This document shows, piece by piece, positions 4,790 through 41,990 of a stretch of 64,000 bases of DNA. Made by a program: the position numbers and the translations under genes. Source of the DNA: Candidatus Roizmanbacteria bacterium RIFCSPHIGHO2_02_FULL_40_13b (GTDB lineage Bacteria > Patescibacteriota > Microgenomatia > UBA1406 > HO2-37-13b). The DNA lies in NCBI GenBank assembly GCA_001789445.1, contig MFZQ01000014.1, forward strand, positions 11,557-75,556. The letters run 5' to 3'. The notes beneath the pieces were generated by a model. It saw only the letters and a list, made by a program, of their open reading frames with translations, did no database searches and was not told where the DNA came from. Positions within the stretch are counted from its first letter, which is position 1. Each line of letters begins with the position of its first letter.

Positions 4790-5599
4790 ATGTTTTACAA
4801 CCGAAGAAGCACGAGTCGAAGAAGCACCATTCAGGCACCGCGAGCACCGATGGTACCGCTCGCACTACTACTCTTGCTCGTTTTGATCATCCTAGGCAAT
4901 GCCTGGTGGTCACCGACGACGGAGGCCCTTTCGGCACAACCGACAGCAGTTGTAGACGCTCCTGTCCAGATTTCGACAGTGAGAGGACTTGCAACCGCCA
5001 CACCGGAACCACCGATTCACATCGCGTGGTTATCACACACGCTCGACCCGTTCCTCTGGAAACTCGCCAACGCCTGCAATAGGTGGGGCGTGGATCCAAG
5101 ACTGTGTGCCATTGTTGCACTTGTGGAGTCCGGGGGAAACCCGTACGCCGTGAGTGAAAGTGGCGCATATGGGCTGATGCAGATCATGCCAGCAACGGGC
5201 TCGCTCGTCGCTACAAGTCTCGATACCCCAGTGGATATCTACGTCATCGACGACAACGTCAATGCCGGAGCGTTCCTTCTTGGAGACGAGCTTGGCTACT
5301 TTGGATTCCTGCAGAGTGCAGATCCAACCTGGCGATGGAGCGTCATGCGTGCAGCAGCTGCCTTCAACGGTAGCCGCAAGTATGCAGACGAGCTGATCGA
5401 CTACGAGACGCTCAAGGTAGGTGGCAATTGCGCCCTCTACTATCCAGAGATCTTTGACCAGCAAATGCATCGGTATTCCTGCTGGGTAGGCGGCCTCTGG
5501 GACGACATCGACGAGAAGGAAAGCGACACGCTTAACTACTGGCTTGCCAGTGGAGGTCAACGACTGATCGACGATGCCGTAGCCGCAGCACAGCGGTAA
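4790..5599 (+). CDS. Membrane-anchored lytic transglycosylase (SLT domain) on a GC-rich island
   Basis: SLT catalytic motif [25 protein letters not shown], an N-terminal hydrophobic anchor, and local GC near 58% against roughly 35% in the flanks. Confidence 0.7.
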
Positions 5600-5731
5600 A
5601 GCACAAGGGCCAGGAGGCACACAGACGGATGTCAGCGTGATCCTTCCTTCCCCCTTTTTGCCCCAAGCGTTCTCGCGCCCTCGAGACTGTACTATCCGTT
5701 TTCCAACCCTTTTGCTATAATATTTTTATAC

Positions 5732-6223
5732 ATGAATACTTCTCAAATAAAAATCTTTATCACTGGTGGAACAATTGATGACTTGAATTATGAGAGAGAC
5801 GTCCCTCAAAATCATCAATCCCTCATTACCGGCTTATTAGAGCGAGCGAGAATTACTCCCGATTATGATGTTGAAGTACTCATGCAGAAAGATAGTCGAG
5901 TTATTTCTGATAAAGATAGAGAAATTATTTTAGAAAGATGCAGGAATTGTACTGAGGATGAAATACTTATTACTCATGGCACATACACAATGCCTGGAAC
6001 TGCAAAATATTTAGGCAACACTCATCTTGATAAAACGATTGTTCTTTTTGGAGCACATATTCCTGCAAACAGAGATAATTCGGACGCTCTTTTTAACCTA
6101 GGAACTGCCTTCATTGCCTGTCAATTACTACCAAAAGGTGTCTATATTCTTATGAATGGAAAAGTATTCACATGGGATAACGTCAAAAAGGATTTTCCAA
6201 CCGGGTACTTTAAAGAAGAATAA
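5732..6223 (+). CDS. Asparaginase/glutaminase-family N-terminal domain protein (short, 163 aa)
   Basis: IFITGGTIDD motif (asparaginase TGGTIA threonine box) and a size that covers only the N-domain. Confidence 0.5.
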   Translation: MNTSQIKIFITGGTIDDLNYERDVPQNHQSLITGLLERARITPDYDVEVLMQKDSRVISDKDREIILERCRNCTEDEILITHGTYTMPGTAKYLGNTHLDKTIVLFGAHIPANRDNSDALFNLGTAFIACQLLPKGVYILMNGKVFTWDNVKKDFPTGYFKEE

Positions 6224-6267: not shown

Positions 6268-8046
6268 TTGCATAGAAAATCGCGTATGAGTACACTCACA
6301 CACTCCATTGAAGAAATAAAAAATAAGCTTGATATCGTTGATTTCATTGGTGGCTATACGACACTGAAAAAGATGGGACGAAATTATAAAGCCAACTGCC
6401 CGTTTCATACCGAAAAAACTCCCTCATTTGTAGTTTCCCCAGACCGGCAAATTTGGCACTGTTTTGGCGCATGTCAAGATGGGGGAGATGTGATTAAGTT
6501 TTACATGAAGTGGGAAAATGTGACTTTTTTTGAAGCGCTCAAAGAGCTTGCTGTTCGAACTGGCGTAAAGCTTGAAACGAGTGAGGTCGAGGATCATACG
6601 TGGCAAAAAAAGGCACGAATGTTTGAAATAAATGCACTTGCGGCAAAATATTACAATTACCTTCTTGTAAACCATAAAGTCGCAAAAGTTGCCCGCGAGA
6701 TTCTTGAGAAAAGAAACATTTCAGACAAACTCATCAACACGTTTCAACTTGGATATGCTCCCAATTCGTGGGATTCGCTCATAAAGTTTTTGACGAAAAA
6801 AAAGTATTCGCTTCCTGACCTTGAATCGGTCGGACTTGTTATTAAAGGAGATAAAGGAAGTTATTACGATCGATTTCGAAATCGAATTGTTTTTCCACTC
6901 AAAGATAGTCGCGGAAATATTTTAGGATTTTCGGGCCGAGCTATTGAAACTGATGATGGCGGGGCAAAATACATTAATACTCCTGAAACAGAAATTTATC
7001 ATAAACGAGAAACGCTTTTTGGGATTGATATTAGCAAAGAAAGTATTCGTCGTTCAGAGAGTGTTATTTTAGTTGAGGGAGAATTTGACATGATCGCCTG
7101 TTTTCGAGAAGGGGTGGAGAATGCAGTTGCAATAAAAGGCTCTGCAGTGACCAGAGATCAACTTTTAGTAATAAGTCGATTGTGTAAACATATAATTCTT
7201 GCACTTGATGCCGACTTTTCTGGAAGTGAGACAATTAAAAGAGCTATTAAAGATGCACAGATTCTCGATTTCAAGATTGAAGTTGCAGTTCCAAAAAATG
7301 GAAAAGATCCCGATGAAGCATTTTCAATTAATAAGGTTGAGTATAAAAAGATACTCAAAAATCCCCAAAACATTTATGATTTCGTCATTGAAAATACCCT
7401 CGCCCAGTTTCCCAAAATTGATGCATATTCGAAACGTGAAATTGCAGATAAAATTATTCCCTTTGTTGTCTTTATTGAGAATCCTATTATTAAGTCACAT
7501 TACATTCGCCGACTTTCTCAAATATTGGAAGTCGATGAAAATTCTATCCAAGTCGAGCTTACAAATTTCGGAAGAAGCGAAGAGAAAAAAACAAATAAAA
7601 AATTTATTACAGAAAAACCCGTTATAAAAAAAAGAGATGAACTCATCGAACAACATGTATTAAGCAAAACTTTTACTAGTGAAGCTATTGATGAAGCGCT
7701 AGAAAAATTGAAACAAGAAATTACAGAAGATGACTTTACTTCAAATGTGTATCAGAAAATATTTCATGCATTAATTGAAAGTAAAGAGCGTTTTACTGCA
7801 CAAAGTTTTGCAAAATTGTTGCCTGCAGAGTTGCAAGAAGCATATGACCAGTTATTTTTAGGAGCCATGGAAATTCCAACTTCCGATATAGGTGATTTTG
7901 ACAGGACGCTTCTTGAAATGAAACGACTTTCTTTGAAACGAAAAATTCGTGATCTCATACAAAATGAGAAAGACGATAACTTAAAAAGGGTTCAAGAACT
8001 TTCTGATTTATTATCTTCAGTGGAAAAAAGGTTGTTTATGGTGTAA
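6268..8046 (+). CDS. dnaG: DNA primase DnaG
   Basis: CHC2 zinc finger (CPFHTEKTPSF...HCFGC), Toprim EGEFD motif, 592 aa, and location upstream of rpoD. Confidence 0.9.
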   Translation: MHRKSRMSTLTHSIEEIKNKLDIVDFIGGYTTLKKMGRNYKANCPFHTEKTPSFVVSPDRQIWHCFGACQDGGDVIKFYMKWENVTFFEALKELAVRTGVKLETSEVEDHTWQKKARMFEINALAAKYYNYLLVNHKVAKVAREILEKRNISDKLINTFQLGYAPNSWDSLIKFLTKKKYSLPDLESVGLVIKGDKGSYYDRFRNRIVFPLKDSRGNILGFSGRAIETDDGGAKYINTPETEIYHKRETLFGIDISKESIRRSESVILVEGEFDMIACFREGVENAVAIKGSAVTRDQLLVISRLCKHIILALDADFSGSETIKRAIKDAQILDFKIEVAVPKNGKDPDEAFSINKVEYKKILKNPQNIYDFVIENTLAQFPKIDAYSKREIADKIIPFVVFIENPIIKSHYIRRLSQILEVDENSIQVELTNFGRSEEKKTNKKFITEKPVIKKRDELIEQHVLSKTFTSEAIDEALEKLKQEITEDDFTSNVYQKIFHALIESKERFTAQSFAKLLPAELQEAYDQLFLGAMEIPTSDIGDFDRTLLEMKRLSLKRKIRDLIQNEKDDNLKRVQELSDLLSSVEKRLFMV

Positions 8047-8102
8047 AATACTGCTGTTGAGTTTCCCCCAAAGGGAGATGCTCTCCAAAATTTTTATTAA
8101 TT

Positions 8103-9206
8103 TTGGCCTATCATATGCCTTTGCAACGAATTCCAAAATCAATCAAAGAACTACTCAAACAAGGTGAGGAAAATGGTTTTTTGGTTCTTGATGATATCTT
8201 CTTCGTATACCCCGACCCCGAACATCACATTGAAGAAATAGACGATCTTTTTGACAAGTCAATGAAAAAAAAGATTGATATATTTGAAAATGTTTCAACC
8301 CGAGATGAAGAAGACGCTAAAAAAACTATTGAAGAACTTGAACGAGAGCTTAAACAACTCGTTACGATTAGACATGGTGAATCACTTGATCCAATAAAAA
8401 TGTATTTGAAGGAAATTGGTCAATATCCACTTCTTAAATTTGAAGATGAGATCAAACTTGCCAAGGCGTATGAAAAAGAAGATTTAGATGCACGAGAAAA
8501 GCTGATTAAGTCTAACTTACGTCTCGTTGTTTCTATTGCTAAAAAGTATCTTGGCCGTAGACTTTCATTCCTTGACCTCATTCAAGAAGGAAATCAGGGA
8601 CTTATTAAAGGAGTTGAAAAGTATGACTGGCGACGTGGGTACAAATTTTCAACGTATGCAACGTGGTGGATTCGCCAAGCCATCACCCGCGCAATTGCTG
8701 ATCAATCTCGTACAATTCGAATTCCAGTCCATATGGTTGATAACATCAATCGATATTACAAAATTCAACGAAAACTTATTCAAAAACTTGGCCGCGATCC
8801 CTCAAACGAAGAAGTTTCAAAGGAAATGGAAATATCGATTAAAGAAGTTGAGAATTTAATAAAAATTTCACAACACCCAAAATCGCTTTCAACCCCAATT
8901 GGAGATGACAAAGAGACAACGCTTGAACAATTTGTAGCAGATAGTGATCAACCAACGCTTTATGATACTGTCTCAAAAGAGTTTTTGAGAGATTATCTCA
9001 ATGAGGTTCTTGACACACTTTCTGAACGAGAACGAAAAGTGCTCATCATGCGATTTGGACTCGATGATGGAAAAACAAAGACACTTGAAGATGTGGGAAA
9101 AGAATTTAATGTGACCCGTGAACGCATTCGACAAATTGAGGCAAAGGCAATTCGAAAACTTCGCCACCCCACCCGCGCACGTAAACTGAAGGACTTTGTA
9201 GAGTAG
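8103..9206 (+). CDS. rpoD: RNA polymerase sigma factor RpoD (sigma-70)
   Basis: Region 2 ([27 protein letters not shown]), region 4 HTH ([29 protein letters not shown]), and the dnaG-rpoD arrangement. Confidence 0.9.
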
Positions 9207-9219
9207 TATAATACGTGTC

Positions 9220-12177
9220 ATGAACCTTACTCCCACACAAAAAAAAGCTATTTCTAACAATGAAGGTCCGCTTCTTATTATCGCTGGCGCAGGAACAGGA
9301 AAAACAACTGTACTCGTTGAGAAAATAAAATATTTAGTTTCTAAAAACCTAGCAAAACCCGAGGAAATTCTCGCACTAACTTTCACCGAGAAAGCCGCAC
9401 AAGAAATAGAGGAACGCGTAGATCTCGCACTTCCAATGGGGTATTTTCAAATGCAGATAAGCACCTTCCACGCATTTTGCGACAAGATTTTACGCAACGA
9501 GATCATAAACATCGGACTTTCTCCAGCTTACACTCTTCAAACACAAGCCCAGACGATGCTATTCTTGCGCCAAAATTTACCAATCATGAATCTCACCTAT
9601 TTTCGCCCACTTTCAAATCCAAACAAGTTTCTCTATGGACTCTTGCAACATTTTTCCAGGCTTCGGGATGAAGATGTGAGTCCGGAAGAGTATGATCGTT
9701 GGATAAAAAGAGGGCTCGAGAGCTCGTCAGCTGGAGGGCTTGAGGAAAAAGGGAAGTATAAAGAGCTTGCGAAAGCATACAGCGAGTTTCAGAATCTGAA
9801 AATAAAAAATAATGTGTTCGATTTTGCGGATCTCATTTATTACACGTTGAAGTTATTTAGAACACGAAAAAAAATACTTGAGCAATACCAAAATAAGTAT
9901 AAGTACATTCTCGTTGATGAGTTTCAGGATACTAATATTGCACAGTATGCATTGATTAAGCTTTTAGCTCCGCCTAAAAGTAATAAAAGTTTGACTGTTA
10001 TTGGAGACGACAATCAAAGTATTTATAAATTTAGAGGGGCGGCAATTTCAAACATTCTCACGTTTAAAAAAGATTATAAGAAAACAAAAACTGTTGTTCT
10101 AAATGAGAACTTCCGAAGTACACAAAAAATTCTCGATGTTGCATACAAAGTTATACAAAATAATAATCCCGACACGCTCGAATCTAAACTCGGAATTTCA
10201 AAAGAATTAAAAAGTCAACAAGGTGAAGGAGCAACAGATGATATTGAATTAAAACTCAACATGAATGTAGTTCATGAAGCAGACGCTGTAATTTCCAACA
10301 TTGAAAAACGAAAAAAAGAAAATCCAAAACTTACCTTCAATGATTTTGCAATTCTCACTCGAGCAAATGCGCACATCGATCCATTTATTAAAGCGCTTTC
10401 CGCCGCAGGAATCCCATATCAGGTAAACAATCAAGGACTATTATTCAAACAACCAGAGATTAAAGATCTTATTTCATTCCTCTATATATTAAATGATGTG
10501 AATGATTCGACTGCTTTTTTTCGAGTTATTTCCATGGATATTTTTGATATTGATTCCACCGATATTGCCAAACTTGTTTCGTTTGCTCGAAAAGTTGGCG
10601 TGTCGTTTTTGGAAGCAACATCAATTTATGTAAGCTCCGAGCACGAGGATTTTCGAAATGAAAATTTTGAACAATATAAACCGTACTTACCTGTTCTGAA
10701 AATCGGTACAAAAGAAAGACTGTATAAAGTGATTACGCAAATAACCGATGGGATCTCTCGAATTAGTAAAGATAGTGCCGGACAAATTCTCTATTATTTC
10801 CTCGAAAATAGTGGCCTCATGGCAAAAATCTCGGTTATTAAAACAGAAAAGGAAGAAATAATTGCAAAAAATATCTCTCGCTTTTTTAATAAACTGAAAA
10901 GTTTTGAACTTACCCAAGTTGATGCTTCTGTAAACGCGGTTGTTGAGTATTTAACATTATGCATGGAAATGGGGGAGTCGCCCATTACTGAAAATGACGA
11001 TTGGGAACAGATGGATGCGGTCAATATTCTGACTGTCCATGGTTCAAAGGGATTGGAATTTGATACTGTTTTTTTGGTAAATCTCACAAGCGGCAGATTT
11101 CCAACAATTTATAGACGTGAACAAATTCCCCTTCCTGATGGAATTATTAAAGAATTACTTCCAACTGGAGATGCACATATGCAAGAAGAACGACGACTCT
11201 TTTATGTTGGAATAACTCGGGCAAAGAATAAGCTGTTTTTGAGTGCATCATATTTTTATGGAGAAGGGAAGCGTCGTCACAAATTATCTCCCTTTATCGA
11301 TGAAGCACTTGACCCAAAGCTTATTCAAAAAGCAAAAAATGAAACACTTGAGACTTTAGAACAATTACCTCTCTTTGACTTAGCAAAAATAAAAGATGAC
11401 TTTGAAAAAAAGCCTGAAAAAAAATCAAAAGCGCTCTCAAAAACCAAAACACTTTTCTCATACTCACAAATTCAAACGTATCAGATTTGTCCACTTCGAT
11501 ATAAATATCAGTACGTTGTAAAACTACCAGTAACTGCCGGATTTGCCGCCTCATTTGGAGACTCGATGCATAAGGCTCTTCAATATTTTTATACTCTCCA
11601 CTTGAAAGATATGCATCCGACCCTCGATGATTTATACGATCTGTATTATAAGTACTGGGTTCCAGTGGGGTATGGATCTAAACAGTATGAGGAGAAAGTT
11701 AAAAATGAAGGAAAAAGGTTACTTCAAGAATTTTACGATACGTACCATTCAGAAAATATTCAGATTGCCGGACTTGAACAGTGGTTTAAGATTAAGATTA
11801 CAGATTCTATCTTTATTTCAGGGAAAATAGATCGCATTGACTTAATTGAAAATGACTCCATTGAAATTATCGATTATAAAACTGGAAAAGTACCGACCGA
11901 TGCAGAACTCAAAAAAGAAATGCAGCTCGCCCTTTATGCACTTGCGGCAACTGATAAGTCTTTGTATGCAAAAGATCTTTCTCAAATAAAATTGACATAT
12001 TATTACCTGCAAGAAAATAAGAAAATGAGTCTAACTCGAACACAAAAAGATATTGATACAGTTATTGAAACGGTTTCCCAGACTGCTCAAGCTATTCAAT
12101 CCGGAAACTTTGAGCCACGAGTTGGTCCCTGGTGCGGCTTTTGTCCGTTTAAGATCAACTGCGAGGTATGGCAGTAG
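9220..12177 (+). CDS. UvrD/PcrA-family helicase fused to a C-terminal PD-(D/E)xK nuclease with a Cas4/AddB-like Fe-S Cys cluster
   Basis: Walker A AGAGTGKT, DEFQD motif, a C-terminal nuclease motif (IDRIDL..IIDYKTGK), and Cys pattern C...CGFCPFKINC. Confidence 0.8.
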   Translation: MNLTPTQKKAISNNEGPLLIIAGAGTGKTTVLVEKIKYLVSKNLAKPEEILALTFTEKAAQEIEERVDLALPMGYFQMQISTFHAFCDKILRNEIINIGLSPAYTLQTQAQTMLFLRQNLPIMNLTYFRPLSNPNKFLYGLLQHFSRLRDEDVSPEEYDRWIKRGLESSSAGGLEEKGKYKELAKAYSEFQNLKIKNNVFDFADLIYYTLKLFRTRKKILEQYQNKYKYILVDEFQDTNIAQYALIKLLAPPKSNKSLTVIGDDNQSIYKFRGAAISNILTFKKDYKKTKTVVLNENFRSTQKILDVAYKVIQNNNPDTLESKLGISKELKSQQGEGATDDIELKLNMNVVHEADAVISNIEKRKKENPKLTFNDFAILTRANAHIDPFIKALSAAGIPYQVNNQGLLFKQPEIKDLISFLYILNDVNDSTAFFRVISMDIFDIDSTDIAKLVSFARKVGVSFLEATSIYVSSEHEDFRNENFEQYKPYLPVLKIGTKERLYKVITQITDGISRISKDSAGQILYYFLENSGLMAKISVIKTEKEEIIAKNISRFFNKLKSFELTQVDASVNAVVEYLTLCMEMGESPITENDDWEQMDAVNILTVHGSKGLEFDTVFLVNLTSGRFPTIYRREQIPLPDGIIKELLPTGDAHMQEERRLFYVGITRAKNKLFLSASYFYGEGKRRHKLSPFIDEALDPKLIQKAKNETLETLEQLPLFDLAKIKDDFEKKPEKKSKALSKTKTLFSYSQIQTYQICPLRYKYQYVVKLPVTAGFAASFGDSMHKALQYFYTLHLKDMHPTLDDLYDLYYKYWVPVGYGSKQYEEKVKNEGKRLLQEFYDTYHSENIQIAGLEQWFKIKITDSIFISGKIDRIDLIENDSIEIIDYKTGKVPTDAELKKEMQLALYALAATDKSLYAKDLSQIKLTYYYLQENKKMSLTRTQKDIDTVIETVSQTAQAIQSGNFEPRVGPWCGFCPFKINCEVWQ

Positions 12178-21028: not shown

Positions 21029-21543
21029 ACGTCAAGTGCTATTGAAAAAATAAAACCATTAGTATCTTTTATAACCGTATCAATTTTTACCTTCGAGAAC
21101 CGCTTGTCCTTGGAAAGCGTCGTATTTAGGTACTGAATTACTGCAATTGATGTCGCATGTGCTTTAAGTGTAATTCCATTCTCATTAATTCCAAAATCAA
21201 AAAGAATTACACCATCGGGAATTTTTGAAAGGACATCATTTATGAGAGAATTTACTTCGTTTTCTTTAGAAAGCTCTTTTTTTATAGAATCTGTCTTCAG
21301 ACTTACTGCTTGAGCCTCAATTACAATTGGTTTTGTAATCTTAATTATTTCTTGTTTTTGAGTAACTTTCTCTTTTAAATCTACAATTTGCTGATCAATA
21401 CTAAACCGGAAGAAAAAAACGATAATAACAACAATTTGAGTTATTACAATAATATAGCGTAAATAATGAAGCGCAAAATACAAAATCTTCTCGGTAACAC
21501 CGCGTTCCTTCTCTCCTAATAGATTAATACCATGTTTACTCAT
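21025..21543 (-). CDS. Type IV pilus assembly protein PilN-like
   Basis: N-terminus MSKHGINLLGEK (the INLL start typical of PilN), a TM segment and about 170 aa. Confidence 0.5.
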   Translation of the reverse strand: MSKHGINLLGEKERGVTEKILYFALHYLRYIIVITQIVVIIVFFFRFSIDQQIVDLKEKVTQKQEIIKITKPIVIEAQAVSLKTDSIKKELSKENEVNSLINDVLSKIPDGVILFDFGINENGITLKAHATSIAVIQYLNTTLSKDKRFSKVKIDTVIKDTNGFIFSIALDV

Positions 21544-21800
21544 TTTTTCTTATTAGCGCTTTTTGCAACTCTTGATTTGAGTCGTGCGGCTTTATTTTTG
21601 TGAATAACGCGCTTTTTGGCAGCTTTATCTATTAGTGAAGATGCTTTTGAGAGTAACGATTTTGTCTTTGCACCCTTTGATGCGACACTTTTCTTTACAG
21701 CTTTCACTACTATTTTATATTTTTTCTTTGCAACTAGGTTACGACCTGTACGCACTTTATCTTTTCTAAGCTTTTTTTTGGCAGATTTTATTATTGGCAT
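21540..21800 (-). CDS. rpsT: 30S ribosomal protein S20
   Basis: MPIIKSAKKKLRKDKVRT...VIHKNKAARLKSRVAKS matches S20. Start taken at MPIIKS (ATG at 21800) with GGTGA 5 nt upstream. Confidence 0.85.
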   Translation of the reverse strand: MPIIKSAKKKLRKDKVRTGRNLVAKKKYKIVVKAVKKSVASKGAKTKSLLSKASSLIDKAAKKRVIHKNKAARLKSRVAKSANKKK

Positions 21801-21866: not shown

Positions 21867-22027
21867 ATGGGAGAGGTTAAGAGGAGGTGATGGGGAGATA
21901 GGGTGGGGCAGAGGAGAGGAAGAGATGAGAAAAACAGAGAGGGAGACTTCTGCTTTTTTCCCATCCTCCTTTCTCCACTCCTCTCATCCCCCCTATCTCC
22001 CTATCCTCTCCTCCCCTCCTCTCTCCC
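21867..22027. repeat. Polypurine arm / polypyrimidine arm hairpin element (copy A) immediately upstream of a TATAAT box and murJ
   Basis: An 86 nt GA-rich arm (21867-21952), then ttctgc, then a CT-rich arm (21955-22027). The arms are imperfect reverse complements (GGGGAGATAGGG / CCCTATCTCCC). A 32-mer ATCTCCCTATCCTCTCCTCCCCTCCTCTCTCC is shared with copy B with one mismatch. Confidence 0.6.
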
Positions 22028-22047
22028 AAATGATATAATCAAACATA

Positions 22048-23673
22048 ATGGACACCTTTCTGAACAATACCAAAAAAATCATTTTTCATAGGCAAAAGGA
22101 TATTTTATCTTCAGCACTTATCCTATCGCTCATGACACTTTTATCAAGTATTTTTGGCTTTGTAAGGCTCCATACACTTGCCTCATTTTACACTAAAGAA
22201 CAACTTGGCCTCTTTTTTGCAGCTTTTCGCATTCCTGATTTCGTTTTTGAAATACTTATAACCGGAGCACTTTCAAGCGCATTTATACCTCTATTTGTCA
22301 AATATAAACAAGATGATTTGAAACTTTCTGAAAATATCTCAAGCATCATTAATTTTGTCCTTGTTGCAATGATATTTTTCGTAATTATTATTATTTTTAG
22401 TACTCCATTATTAACCCCCATCGTAACACCTGGATTTGATCGTGAAAAGACGATGCTTGTTATTTCATTTACTCAAATTTTGCTTGTTTGTCAATTACCA
22501 CTTCTTGTTATTGGTAATATTTTGTCTGGAATTTCTCAGGCAAGTAAAATTTTTGTAATTACGGCGATTGCCCCCGTTGTATATAACCTTGGTATTATTT
22601 TTGGGACTATTTTTCTTTCTTCCTCACTTGGAATATATGCACCTGTTGTCGGTGTGATTATTGGAAGTATTTTATTTTTGGCAACACAAATACCAATTGT
22701 ATTTTTTGTCTCTTTTAAATATCAAATACGCGCATTTAGGAAAAGTGCTCTACATGAATTTGTCCATCTTTTTACTCCACGTATGCTTTCTGTTCTAACA
22801 ACTCAAATTGATCTTTTTGTAGATCTTGCCCTTGCAAGTCTTTTTGGTCCTGCAGGAGTGACAATTTTTGTGTTTGCACAAAGATTGCAATTTTTTCCCG
22901 TATCGTTTTTTGGCATGTCGTTTGGACAAGCATCCCTCCCCTATTTAAGCGATTTATATAAAGAGAATAAGCTTGAAGAAATACGAAAAATATTTATAAA
23001 CTCAATATTACAATTATTATTTTTATCAATCCCCGTATCGTTTTTTTTTATTTTTGCCCGGACTCCAATCGTACGATTCTTTGTTGGAGGACAAAAATTT
23101 GACTGGGAGGGTACGGTAAAAACCGCACGTGTATTGTCATATTTTGCAGTGTCTATACCATTTCATACGCTTTTCTATTTTGTAACCCGAGCATTTTATG
23201 CTACTCATAATACTAAAATACCTTTTTTTGTAAATTTTTCATCGAGCATTATTAACACCGTATTGAGCATTCTTTTGATTGTATATTTAAAATTACCTGT
23301 TTGGTATTTGGGTATGAGCTTCTCAATTACTATGATTTTGAATATTTCAGTACTCTTATTCTTGTTTCGTAGAGAAATCGGTGGCTTTGAACTTAAAAAA
23401 CTTTTACTAAACACATCGAAAATCTATTTTATTGCCGCAATTTCTGCCGCAGTATCTTTTCCTGCAATGAAACTTATCGATGGGCTTATTCTCGATACTT
23501 CTCGTACAATAAACCTATTCCTCTTGCTTATTATTATAGGTACAACGTATACTGGTGTTTATCTTTTTCTTTCATGGTTATTTACGATTGAAGAAATTTA
23601 TTTACTTGGAAATTTATTAATTAAGATTCGAGATATTAAACGTATATTAGTTGAAATGTGGACATCTGATTAA
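22048..23673 (+). CDS. murJ: Lipid II flippase MurJ (MviN)
   Basis: 541 aa, about 14 TM segments, and a conserved N-terminal region (RIPDFVFEILITGALSSAFIPLF). Confidence 0.8.
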   Translation: MDTFLNNTKKIIFHRQKDILSSALILSLMTLLSSIFGFVRLHTLASFYTKEQLGLFFAAFRIPDFVFEILITGALSSAFIPLFVKYKQDDLKLSENISSIINFVLVAMIFFVIIIIFSTPLLTPIVTPGFDREKTMLVISFTQILLVCQLPLLVIGNILSGISQASKIFVITAIAPVVYNLGIIFGTIFLSSSLGIYAPVVGVIIGSILFLATQIPIVFFVSFKYQIRAFRKSALHEFVHLFTPRMLSVLTTQIDLFVDLALASLFGPAGVTIFVFAQRLQFFPVSFFGMSFGQASLPYLSDLYKENKLEEIRKIFINSILQLLFLSIPVSFFFIFARTPIVRFFVGGQKFDWEGTVKTARVLSYFAVSIPFHTLFYFVTRAFYATHNTKIPFFVNFSSSIINTVLSILLIVYLKLPVWYLGMSFSITMILNISVLLFLFRREIGGFELKKLLLNTSKIYFIAAISAAVSFPAMKLIDGLILDTSRTINLFLLLIIIGTTYTGVYLFLSWLFTIEEIYLLGNLLIKIRDIKRILVEMWTSD

Positions 23674-39141: not shown

Positions 39142-40968
39142 TTAGCTCCTCCCTGCTATCCTTCTCGCAGATTGAGTGAGGTAGCGTTTGCGAATTCGCA
39201 GGCTTTTTGGTGTTACTTCAAGAAGCTCGTCATCAGCAATAAAATCAAGTGATTGTTCAAGTGAAAGAATCGTTGCCGGCTCTAGACTTTCTGAGACTCC
39301 TTCTCCACTTGACCGATTATTCGTAAGCTTTTTTTCTCGACACACATGTACCTCGATATCTTCCTCTCGGCTGGCTTGCCCGACAACCATTCCTTCATAC
39401 ACCGTAATACCCGGACCGATAAAAAGCATTCCTCGTTCTTGCGCATTCACCAGCCCATATGTCATCGAGCTTCCGGCTTGTGTGGCAACAAGTGCCCCAC
39501 TTCGAACTTGTTCCATAGGAGATCCTTTTGGTTCATATCCTAAAAAGTACGAGCTCATAATCATCGTTCCACGTGTTTTAGTTAAAAGTGAGGAGCGGAT
39601 TCCGATAAGATTTTGGCTGGATATCTTGTAAATCATCCGCACCGTATCATTTCGATCAGTTGTCACATCAAGCATCGTGCCTTGGCGTTTCCCAAATTCT
39701 TCGCTCACCACTCCCATAAAATCTTTGTGAACATCAATCGTCACTTCTTCATACGGTTCGCAAACCATTCCATCAATCGTTTTGTAAATCACTTGCGGCC
39801 TGGAAACTTCAAGTTCAAATCCTTCCCGTCTCATTGTTTCAATAAGGATCGCTAGATGAAGCTCACCTCGCCCCCGGACCATAAATCCTGTTCCAGAAGA
39901 TGAATCATCTTCAATTTGCAGCCCTAAATTTGTTTGAATTTCTTTGGAAAGTCGTTCTTTTATTTGACGAGAAGTGGTAAATTCTCCTTCACGACCTGCA
40001 AGGGGAGATGTATTTGGACCAATGGTTATTTTAATTGTTGGTTCCTCAATTGAGATTGTAGGAAGTGCAACTGGAGTTGCTGGATCAGTAACGGTTTGAC
40101 CAATGGTAAGCTGGGCGATTCCGGCAAGTGCTACAATATCACCGCTTGTTATTTCCTCAACCTCAACTCGAGAAATTCCTTCACTTGTGTAAAGTTTGCT
40201 GGCTGTATAATTCCCCAAAACTCCTGTTTCATTTACAAGCGTTATTTTTTCACCTTTTTTAAGTTTCCCTTGATTTACTTTTCCAATACAAAGTCGACCG
40301 ACGTACAGATCATGATCGAGCGTAGAAATAAGCATTTGAAATGGTTTATCTTCATCAATCGCACTATTTGGAACTTCTTTGATGACCGTTTCAAAAAGCG
40401 GTGTTACATCTCCTGGAGTTTCGGGCGAATACTTTTCTGGTTTTTCAAAAAAAACTTTTCCGTCCCGACCTACCGCAAAAAGAGTGGTAAAGTGGAGCGC
40501 GGACTCATCATGTGCAAGCTCTAAAAACAAACTCTCAACTTCATGAATGACTTCGTCAGATCGTTCATCTTTTTTATCAATTTTATTTATAACAAGAATT
40601 ATTTTTAAGTGCGCTTCCAGGGCTTTTTTTAATACAAATTTAGTTTGAGGTAAAGGGCCTTCTGCCGCGTCGACAAGAAGGATGGCTCCGCTCGCCATAT
40701 TTATAATTCGCTCAACTTCTCCACCAAAATCCGCATGTCCGGGAGTATCAATAATATTGATCTTATGATCTTTATAGAACACACTCGTATTCTTGGAAAG
40801 AATGGTAATCCCCTTTTCACGCTCCAAATCGTTCGAATCCATGATGAGCGTTTGACCCATTTCTTTTTGATTGTCACGAAATGTATGTGTTTGTTTTAAA
40901 AGGGCGTCCACAAGCGTGGTTTTTCCATGATCAACGTGGGCAATAATAGCGATATTGTATATGTTCAT
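39142..40968 (-). CDS. typA: Translational GTPase TypA/BipA
   Basis: AIIAHVDHGKTTL and DTPGHADFGGEVER motifs with EF-G-like domains. ATG at 40968 (MNIYNIAII); an alternative GTG lies at 40986. Confidence 0.9.
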   Translation of the reverse strand: MNIYNIAIIAHVDHGKTTLVDALLKQTHTFRDNQKEMGQTLIMDSNDLEREKGITILSKNTSVFYKDHKINIIDTPGHADFGGEVERIINMASGAILLVDAAEGPLPQTKFVLKKALEAHLKIILVINKIDKKDERSDEVIHEVESLFLELAHDESALHFTTLFAVGRDGKVFFEKPEKYSPETPGDVTPLFETVIKEVPNSAIDEDKPFQMLISTLDHDLYVGRLCIGKVNQGKLKKGEKITLVNETGVLGNYTASKLYTSEGISRVEVEEITSGDIVALAGIAQLTIGQTVTDPATPVALPTISIEEPTIKITIGPNTSPLAGREGEFTTSRQIKERLSKEIQTNLGLQIEDDSSSGTGFMVRGRGELHLAILIETMRREGFELEVSRPQVIYKTIDGMVCEPYEEVTIDVHKDFMGVVSEEFGKRQGTMLDVTTDRNDTVRMIYKISSQNLIGIRSSLLTKTRGTMIMSSYFLGYEPKGSPMEQVRSGALVATQAGSSMTYGLVNAQERGMLFIGPGITVYEGMVVGQASREEDIEVHVCREKKLTNNRSSGEGVSESLEPATILSLEQSLDFIADDELLEVTPKSLRIRKRYLTQSARRIAGRS

Positions 40969-40998: not shown

Positions 40999-41025
40999 GT
41001 TTGGTCCACCTTTTGTGGACCAAAC
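40999..41025. repeat. Perfect 11 bp stem hairpin GTTTGGTCCAC-cttt-GTGGACCAAAC
   Basis: Read from the sequence. It lies between the typA start and repeat copy B. Confidence 0.5.
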
Positions 41026-41148
41026 GGAGAGGAGAGGATGGGGGGGATTGGGAGATAGGGAGAATCCTCCCCTCTGTTTTTTTCTCCTCCTCATCTCCTC
41101 CGCCACACCCCATCTCCCTATCTTCTCCTCCCCTCCTCTCTCCTCTTC
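41026..41148. repeat. Polypurine/polypyrimidine hairpin element (copy B) upstream of a TATAAT box and the ZIP transporter gene
   Basis: GA-rich arm 41026-41063 and CT-rich arm 41068-41148, sharing ATCTCCCTATCtTCTCCTCCCCTCCTCTCTCC with copy A. Followed by gcTATAATc. Confidence 0.6.
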
Positions 41149-41246
41149 CCATGCTATAATCACACAGTGCATAAACAACTAACCATCGTCTGTGGATGCG
41201 TTGTACCACTTGACTTATTGCAAATCATTTGCAATAATACCAATGC

Positions 41247-41990
41247 ATGTCTATATTTCTTCAAATAATTCTTGCAACGTTCATTACCAGCAGTCTTTCT
41301 CTTGTTGGAGGATCTTTACTTATTTGGAAAAAACTTCTTGATCATAAATATTTACCACACTTTGTAAGTTTTGCGGCTGGAGTAATGCTTACAACCGCTT
41401 TTATTGATTTACTTCCCGAAGCTATCGAAAATAGTACAAATCACGCAATATACGAATCTGTCTTACTTGGAATTGTCGTATTTTTCTTTTTGGAGCGCTT
41501 TGTACTTTGGTTTCATCATCACGATGACCTACATGGAACTAAGCCGACAGCAGTCCTTATTCTCTTGGGAGACGCACTTCACAATATGTTTGATGGAGCT
41601 GCGATTGCAGCAGCTTTCCTCACCAATCCGAGTTTGGGAATTGTAACGACTATCGCAATTGCGGCGCACGAAATTCCCCATGAAATTGCTGACTTCACTA
41701 TTCTTATTCATGGTGGAATGAAAAAAACACGAGCTCTCTATTTCAATTTTTTATCTGCACTTACCGCATTCGTTGGGGCGATAAGTGGATACTTTTTTCT
41801 GTCGCAAGTTGAGGAAATTCGGCCGCTATTTTTGGGATTCAGTGCCGGAATGTTCATTTACATCGCCTGTTCAGACCTTATTCCCGATATGCATACTGAG
41901 TTTAAGAAACAAAAAAGATGGAAACAAAGTTGGCCCTTCATTGTAGGACTGTTAGTTGGGTACACACTCATTACAACATTGCATCATTAA
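41247..41990 (+). CDS. ZIP-family zinc/metal transporter (ZupT-like)
   Basis: AIAAHEIPHEIADFTIL signature (HExPHE), about 8 TM segments, 247 aa. Confidence 0.8.
   Translation: MSIFLQIILATFITSSLSLVGGSLLIWKKLLDHKYLPHFVSFAAGVMLTTAFIDLLPEAIENSTNHAIYESVLLGIVVFFFLERFVLWFHHHDDLHGTKPTAVLILLGDALHNMFDGAAIAAAFLTNPSLGIVTTIAIAAHEIPHEIADFTILIHGGMKKTRALYFNFLSALTAFVGAISGYFFLSQVEEIRPLFLGFSAGMFIYIACSDLIPDMHTEFKKQKRWKQSWPFIVGLLVGYTLITTLHH

Follow-up and report, generated by a model that had tools for sequence, protein, structure and literature searches.

A palindromic repeat of one Candidatus Roizmanbacteria population that looks like selfish DNA, lodged beside extended -10 promoters and, as single arms, inside genes

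CPR genomes are tiny and densely packed, and little repetitive DNA is expected in them. Two copies of a long hairpin-forming sequence that lie directly against -10 boxes within 64,000 nt of a Candidatus Roizmanbacteria contig (the whole stretch analysed here, referred to below as the window) raise the question of whether the repeat belongs to these promoters or has come to rest beside them. The first-pass annotation had taken the pair for a homopurine/homopyrimidine mirror element, possibly H-DNA-forming, whose fixed position against a -10 box suggested a mobile promoter-associated element or a regulatory structure. On the evidence below, the repeat looks like selfish DNA and not like part of a promoter.

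Copy A (21869-22027) is a full-length palindromic element of 159 nt that aligns from end to end with full-length copies at three further loci of the same genome (L033, L052 and L053a), and consists of a GA-rich arm (21869-21945), an apex (~21946-21952) and a CT-rich arm (21953-22027). Copy B (41026-41150) is internally deleted, with a short GA arm (41026-41064) followed by a CT-rich remainder (41065-41150). A conserved module, M, occupies 21930-21873 on the minus strand in copy A and 41084-41143 on the plus strand in copy B. Both copies were found where the first-pass annotation had placed them, and their arms are indeed imperfect reverse complements, albeit not GA-only and CT-only as had been written: the purine-rich arms contain 88-90% A+G and the pyrimidine-rich arms 92-93% C+T. 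Even with three mismatches allowed, the window contains the 20-mer TCTCCTCCCCTCCTCTCTCC at two places only, and none of 100 shuffled sequences contains it; the 32-mer said to be common to the copies was recovered with its one mismatch (21995-22026 against 41112-41143), a 54-nt direct repeat has 81% identity, and the 50-nt arms of copy A are 76% complementary. Copy A folds into a ~63-bp hairpin (-92.6 kcal/mol, z = -5.1) and copy B retains a ~34-bp outer stem (-57.1 kcal/mol, z = -3.4), with no shuffled sequence as stable in either case. Because the same A and B sequences are present in independent assemblies from ENA, NCBI, JGI and Logan, the copies are not an assembly artefact.

The symmetry of the element is that of an inverted repeat: the GA arm matches the CT arm as its reverse complement and not as its mirror image, so that the description as a mirror, H-DNA-type element was mostly wrong. 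What stands of it is one perfect pyrimidine mirror, CTCTCCTCCCCTCCTCTC, near the outer end, 18 nt long in copy A and 16 nt in copy B; the longest pure pyrimidine runs measure 24 and 30 nt. A perfect 11-bp palindrome between the bipA -10 box and copy B (GTTTGGTCCAC-CTTTT-GTGGACCAAAC, 40999-41025) is single in the window and lies outside the repeat family. The small open reading frames across copies A and B, including a 78-aa ORF over copy B that some pipelines annotate, had been regarded as artefacts, and in agreement with this none matched a Pfam family.

We searched for relatives of the two copies with a core common to their four arms, CCCnATCTCCCnATCnnCTCCTC, written as a 19-base degenerate pattern and scanned against metagenomes. 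The scan returned 54 loci, and the family ones were in Rifle groundwater contigs; approximately half of the 54 matches were (CCCCATCT)n octamer tandem repeats in unrelated organisms and were discarded. The remaining loci gave an extended consensus, CTCATCTCCTCCGCCCCA-CCCnATCTCCCnATC-nnCTCCTCCCCnCCTC, and a profile search identified 25 unique module copies (at sites of ~55-160 nt), well beyond the two copies first noticed. These 25 are the loci retrieved by the pattern search and not a whole-genome census, and the number of sites is accordingly given as at least 25. The unit of the family is a pyrimidine-rich module of ~57-80 nt, and the full element comprises two such modules in inverted orientation (~150-160 nt, with a ~60-bp stem). 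Eleven of the 25 sites are intergenic: four full hairpins (copy A, L033, L052 and L053a), three internally deleted or decayed copies (copy B, L053b and L039, each with an internal deletion), three half-elements (L065, L019b and L027a) and one ORF-bearing composite (L037). The other 14 are single arms inside long ORFs. The outer ends of the inverted repeat read GGGAGGAG...CTCCTCCC, and the full copies have in common a centre, ACAGAGAGG..TTCTGCTTTT.TCCCATCC, that is asymmetric; intragenic copies have one arm only. Some assemblies have contig breaks inside the repeat.

All tested family loci belong to the window's own Candidatus Roizmanbacteria population. Exact-sequence look-up placed flanking proteins of L019, L025, L027, L029, L033, L035, L037, L039, L040, L047, L052, L053 and L065 in the NCBI bins that also contain the S20 protein of the window (A2799_/A3D80_/A3A56_/A3H83_); L018 was assigned without direct look-up, via its duplicate L066 on contig Ga0209541_10000344, where L047 also lies. 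One Rifle groundwater bin of this CPR organism is GCA_001789775.1. Among contigs of species-representative genomes, which do not include the source genome, the exact 20-mer gave four unrelated matches (Actinorhabdospora, Thermogemmatispora and others). Viral contigs gave no match to one core pattern and a single chance match, in GC-rich coding DNA, to a second, so that, to the extent that these patterns can tell, phages do not carry the element. No further module copies were hidden in the genes of the window at E<=10. A transposase or other transposition signature was not found among the copies, the ends of which are fuzzy.

We assessed what the module does to the genes that carry it. It lies in frame in genes for GatB, L-threonine dehydrogenase, tRNA-dihydrouridine synthase (Dus), a SpoU methyltransferase and a PAP2 phosphatase, as well as in two glycosyltransferases, a 969-aa membrane protein (three copies) and other proteins, and all 14 intragenic copies leave the ORF open, in both orientations and all three frames. 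Compared with solved structures (PDB sequences), the threonine dehydrogenase is longer by 19 aa, inserted cleanly at a loop, and GatB aligns with a net gap of 19 aa, likewise at a loop. The nearest GatB homologues (~70% identity, 442-445 aa against 463 aa here) are without the insert, a net gain of ~18 aa. Given this use of several frames and both orientations, and the insert-free homologues, conservation of the module is at the level of DNA and not of protein, as in Rickettsia palindromic elements (RPEs; PMC10969869); the folding, covariation and Rfam results given below argue likewise against conservation as RNA. The composition of the arms bears on how this is tolerated, since the CT strand is open in 2.75 of three frames on average, compared to 1.44 for the GA strand and 1.18 for random 66-mers, and full-length copy A is open in only one of six frames. 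These values fit both the presence of half-elements only in ORFs and the greater number of insertions with the CT strand as sense (nine, versus five with GA as sense). A 33-nt in-frame indel inside the element copy of the PAP2 gene separates near-identical strains. We also considered length variants in 90% protein clusters as ongoing indels of the element, and rejected all except PAP2, the others being start-site or C-terminal differences.

Both window copies are in divergent intergenic regions. Copy A lies between rpsT, encoding ribosomal protein S20 (86 aa; 21540-21800, minus strand), and murJ, encoding the lipid II flippase (541 aa; 22048-23673, plus strand), and copy B between the GTPase gene bipA/typA (608 aa; 39142-40968, minus strand) and a gene for a ZIP-family metal transporter (247 aa; 41247-41990, plus strand). 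All four outer ends of the copies face an outward-pointing extended -10 box, and no -35 partner was found for any of these four boxes. The rpsT box (TGCTATACT, 21865-21857, minus strand) starts 3 nt beyond the left end of copy A and the murJ box (TGATATAAT, 22031-22039, plus strand) 3 nt beyond its right end; as the murJ ATG follows only 8 nt past that box, the murJ mRNA is probably leaderless. On the left of copy B is the bipA box (TGATATAAT, 40997-40989, minus strand). At the right end, TGCTATAAT (41152-41160, plus strand) is a box of doubtful function 87 nt upstream of the ZIP ATG. It differs from the conserved ZIP promoter, TTGACT-N17-AATAAT (41210-41238, plus strand), which is 60 nt further downstream and contains in its spacer a palindrome, TTGCAAATCATTTGCAA (41218-41234), that is likely a metal-regulator operator. 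The box previously noted upstream of the ZIP gene is therefore present without being the conserved promoter of that gene. Each copy was also said to end in a shared sequence followed at once by TATAAT; TATAAT does follow, separated from the shared end by 7 nt in copy A and by 11 nt in copy B. The window contains 12 instances of TGnTATAAT where ~6.7 would be expected, most of them upstream of genes, and this sequence appears to be the usual promoter signature of the organism.

Comparison with relatives indicates which parts of these spacers are old. The rpsT-murJ gene order is kept in relatives with 57-71% MurJ identity, and the S20-murJ spacer measures 94-109 nt in three of them (L069, L070 and L071) compared to 247 nt in the window. 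In L069, an empty-site relative with the rpsT and murJ boxes at the same places, the divergent -10 boxes are only ~12 nt apart, and it is precisely this gap that copy A fills in the window. The bipA extended -10 (same box, same distance) and the ZIP promoter with its palindrome are kept without the element in L073 and L074, where gene order differs; the ZIP promoter of L073 is identical to that of the window. As relatives without the element keep the boxes, the flanking promoters are ancestral and the element has been inserted on their upstream side. The claim of a repeated and apparently mobile sequence is borne out by these empty orthologous sites together with the 25 sites in one genome. 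A relative with 71% MurJ identity (L068), which also has the rpsT box, has, at the corresponding place between S20 and murJ, a GA-rich remnant of one arm, which could reflect long retention there or a preferred target. Three of the four outer flanks of A and B match CCCAT..TGCTATA.TCA. We considered the -10 boxes as part of the inverted repeat and rejected this, since they are present in relatives without the element. The flanks of the full-length copies have no common direct repeat of the target-site-duplication kind, and the empty sites (69-71% protein identity) are too diverged to fix the junctions.

The proximity of intergenic copies to promoters, as had been proposed, is a real tendency. 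Of the 18 ends at which intergenic copies face outward, nine have a -10-like box no more than 10 nt away (a strict TGnTAnnnT in five cases), another four lie just upstream of a -35/-10 pair, giving 13 of 18 within 45 nt of a promoter, and the last five face gene 3' ends. The promoter-associated part of the proposal is not supported, as the -10 boxes lie outside the element, which itself contains no -35/-10 pair, and more than half of the family is in ORFs, where no promoter is nearby. Extended -10 promoters do not need a -35 region. We infer that the position against the -10 box is a survivorship pattern arising from compact spacers, and not a promoter function, given that spacers are ~100 nt long and filled with promoters, that loss of a -35 region is tolerated, and that the promoters exist without the element. 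Nine of 18 ends within 10 nt of a box would also be expected of an element that targets or modulates promoters. On the survivorship reading, the element would neither provide the flanking promoters nor be required for them.

Taken together, copies A and B are probably lineage-specific, non-autonomous palindromic repeats of one Candidatus Roizmanbacteria population, similar to MITEs, REPINs and RPEs, that selection has filtered into harmless sites. The repeat is multicopy in this genome, absent at orthologous sites of relatives, and found not only in spacers but also, in the form of single arms, in frame within genes. The element would have spread by a DNA-level mechanism, with purifying selection in a very compact genome then keeping only harmless copies. 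Full hairpins would last in untranscribed spacer DNA immediately before extended -10 promoters, which need no -35, and also between a stop codon and the next promoter. Within ORFs only half-elements would last, owing to a nearly stop-free pyrimidine strand and to sites in protein surface loops.

The composite copy raises the further possibility that the hairpins descend, as forms without an ORF, from a selfish element of the rRNA intervening-sequence (IVS) type that left rRNA genes for promoter spacers and protein-coding genes, a hypothesis that we consider unlikely. At L037:10077-10722, two arms with the normal termini of the family form a ~70-bp stem (duplex -122 kcal/mol) around a loop that holds a 142-aa 23S_rRNA_IVP/four-helix-bundle ORF (PF05635 E = 8e-28; TIGR02436 E = 1e-27). 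This is exactly the architecture of an IVS, with the same termini as the rest of the family, and the protein encoded by the only ORF-bearing copy is a four-helix-bundle IVP protein and not a known transposase. Avd, an accessory protein of DGRs, is related to the 23S_rRNA_IVP four-helix-bundle protein, and a DGR cassette (Avd plus RVT_1 reverse transcriptase) is located 1.7 kb from the L052 copy. Under an IVS origin, the IVP protein may help mobilisation, conceivably with the DGR-type reverse transcriptase of the same genome, and the intragenic half-elements would be truncated copies. Against such an origin, this is the one ORF-bearing copy in 551 kb, over which no third 23S_rRNA_IVP or Avd gene was found, and the IVP gene may have entered a hairpin that was already there. 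DGR-type adenine mutagenesis of the repeat was considered and rejected, in that the variable columns (25, 29, 37, 41-42 and 49-52) do not correspond to adenines of either strand.

We also weighed whether the hairpins, whatever their origin, have been exapted as promoter-region structures, with a cruciform under negative supercoiling or a short pyrimidine-mirror triplex insulating or tuning two extended -10 promoters. The window copies and L052 are between divergent promoters, their stems are very stable, and the perfect 16-18-nt pyrimidine mirror is at the outer end, all of which, with the 9 of 18 and 13 of 18 ends close to promoters, would suit such a role; a supercoiling-sensitive putative cruciform between divergent promoters is physically plausible. 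However, relatives appear from their sequences to use the same promoters without the element, 14 of 25 sites are within ORFs, and the TGCTATAAT box beside copy B is not the conserved ZIP promoter. The structure itself also argues against this role: the mirror is short for H-DNA and the whole arms are inverted repeats, most of one arm is lost in copy B, and the stems of the four full-length copies decay without compensation, as none of 47 stem pairs has a compensatory change (covariation term +1.88) and changes simply break pairs. Nothing here points to a selected structure of the kind that had been suggested for regulation; H-DNA formation and promoter regulation by the element are not supported, and we consider exaptation unlikely.

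Less probable by far is a role at the level of RNA, as a structured non-coding RNA gene or a cis element (an RNase III-processed hairpin, a terminator or a small RNA). Folding energies are far below those of shuffled sequences, and the tandem contexts of L053a and L053b would put the hairpin in the 3' region of the upstream transcript. The window copies, however, are upstream of outward-facing -10 boxes, and as the known promoters point away from them they do not transcribe these copies. The two strands fold equally stably, so that neither is the better folder, the stems are without a terminator-like T-tail, and half-copies are translated within ORFs. In addition to the 0/47 compensatory pairs, searches of both strands against Rfam at permissive thresholds gave no family at threshold, the matches being only eukaryotic miRNA-precursor-like hairpins far below gathering scores. 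Chance similarity of low-complexity purine/pyrimidine tracts, or a small protein-coding gene, as low-complexity composition and the 78-aa ORF call across copy B might suggest, is already refuted by the 20-mer absent from all 100 shuffles, the 32-mer with one mismatch, a family consensus conserved at 25 sites, ORFs without a Pfam match and a module frame that differs between sites.

A probably selfish repeat in such a genome has several implications. One Roizmanbacteria population carries a young repeat at a minimum of 25 sites, more than half of which lengthen conserved enzymes by ~18-25 residues, and this would be an independent counterpart, in a very different reduced genome, of the RPE phenomenon of Rickettsia. 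By removing stop codons, the purine/pyrimidine asymmetry of the strands means that selfish DNA can survive inside genes. The repeat also accounts for places where CPR assemblies show unusual low-complexity inserts, spurious small ORFs or broken contigs, and its pattern of survival suggests that DNA upstream of extended -10 promoters is dispensable in these organisms. If the IVP-bearing copy is indeed the parent, the family would offer a route to study the spread of IVS elements and of the four-helix-bundle proteins, which are widespread but uncharacterised.

Several known systems resemble the family in part. The IVS of Coxiella burnetii has terminal inverted repeats and an S23p ORF in its loop and has been described as selfish (PMC4990558), and 23S_rRNA_IVP ORFs occur within rRNA insertions of CPR bacteria (PMC11270868). 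The L037 copy has the same layout of a stem and an IVP-ORF loop as the Coxiella IVS but lies between protein-coding genes and not in an rRNA helix, and the window copies are without an ORF; every copy examined was in a protein-coding gene or an intergenic spacer. RPEs are ~150-bp palindromic repeats found in intergenic regions and in frame in unrelated housekeeping genes, where they form tolerated peptide segments (PMC10969869). The likeness to the present family extends to short palindromes, a small compact genome and in-frame hosts (here GatB, TDH, Dus, SpoU, PAP2 and glycosyltransferases). The two have no sequence relationship, however, and the host here is a CPR bacterium. Furthermore, what ORFs contain here is a single arm (~54-75 nt) and in no case the full palindrome. 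The marked purine/pyrimidine asymmetry of the arms leaves the CT strand with hardly any stop codons, and translation of the module uses several frames, whereas each RPE family encodes a conserved peptide.

Correia elements, the MITEs of Neisseria, are inverted repeats of ~100-200 bp that are typically immediately upstream of genes (PMC10969869), and are similar to the repeat described here in size, inverted-repeat build and gene-upstream location. They differ in bringing sigma-70 promoters with them, along with IHF sites and TA duplications, whereas the -10 boxes here are ancestral and outside the element and no target duplication was seen. REP/REPIN sequences, which RAYT transposases mobilise, provide a parallel in that the replicating unit may be an inverted hairpin doublet with singlets as remnants, and in being lineage-specific and multicopy with decaying copies; REPs are ~20-40 nt long and strictly extragenic, in contrast to the longer and often intragenic modules of this family. 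Like MITEs in general, the element is short (<~500 bp), non-coding, multicopy and bounded by terminal inverted repeats. The family belongs to a known kind of repeat, and its interest lies in the CPR host, the stop-free purine/pyrimidine design, the half-copies that sit in frame and the possibility that it is connected with IVS elements.

Several metagenome contigs from the Roizmanbacteria population represented by the window start or stop within or beside a copy of the repeat (the ends of L003, L009, L035, L019 and L065), the first base of L003 lying 46 nt upstream of murJ, inside copy A. Therefore, short-read assemblies of this genome are fragmented by the repeat.

Several genes adjoining repeat copies lack a Shine-Dalgarno sequence and have their ATG only 6–9 nt past the -10 box (window 22031-22050 and contig sites L053:5674-5700, L053:8428-8450 and L065:322-340), an arrangement that points to frequent use of leaderless mRNAs in this organism. 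By contrast, the ribosome-binding site of rpsT is strong (AAGGGGGTGAT). The ZIP transporter mRNA is probably leaderless, because its ATG is only 8 nt past the -10 box of a canonical promoter (TTGACT-N17-AATAAT, 41210-41238). The spacer of this promoter contains a palindrome with an 8-1-8 layout (TTGCAAATCATTTGCAA, 41218-41234) that is unchanged in a relative whose ZIP transporter is 73% identical (contig L073) and that resembles the operator of a Zur/Fur-type metal regulator. Next to the extended -10 of bipA, in the -35 position, lies a perfect 11-bp palindrome whose arms enclose a 5-nt loop (GTTTGGTCCAC CTTTT GTGGACCAAAC, 40999-41025). It occurs once within the window and is missing from the contigs of two relatives (L073 and L074); it may be either an operator or a further small insertion.

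Another relative (contig L068, 71% MurJ identity) has GA-rich, module-like tracts (5588-5750 and 2380-2450) that fall below the profile threshold. One occupies the orthologous rpsT-murJ site; a further one sits between PYNP and yceG, where it flanks a GC-rich hairpin (CCTGCCCGCCA...TGGCAGGCGGG). Within the window, a GC-rich island (4790-5640, ~50% GC versus 38% for the window) that may have been horizontally acquired codes for an SLT lytic transglycosylase of 269 aa. After it come a pyrimidine tract (5641-5659) and the TGCTATAAT promoter of an asparaginase-like gene.

The GatB surface loop bearing the in-frame repeat insert carries unrelated inserts of 10–40 aa in other Roizmanbacteria (homologues P0273, P0302, P0312, P0316, P0350, P0353 and P0364), several of which resemble translated DNA repeats (e.g., ...EIASSLSAPRND and ...LITNYQFPNKSKIP). 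Different small repeats seem to have inserted at this loop recurrently. Peptide strings of the RLRGNDK / SFPRRRES type were also observed within or terminating open reading frames of the repeat's own genome: …DSRLRGNDK in a 969-aa protein of L037, …GLRGNDN at the PAP2 C-terminus on L040, and …SFPRRRESIQMDPRLLGDD at L039:4278-4649. Such strings are typical translations of a different short hairpin repeat, GC-rich and widespread, and their position in or at the ends of reading frames suggests a second repeat family in the same genome that is likewise read through.

The same genome harbors a diversity-generating retroelement cassette (L052:7610-10378), comprising an RVT_1 reverse transcriptase (7610-8704, minus strand), an Avd gene (8856-9158), an Asn-rich TR-like stretch and a putative target gene (9596-10378), the promoter of which directly adjoins a full-length repeat copy. 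At L037:10077-10722, the arms of one repeat copy flank a gene situated in the loop, which encodes a 142-aa four-helix-bundle protein (23S_rRNA_IVP / TIGR02436), and the right arm holds a nested 38-nt insert (TTTCCTTCGCCCTAGCTCAGGATCTCGCCTCGGCTCGA). This copy has an IVS-like layout and is located outside any rRNA gene.
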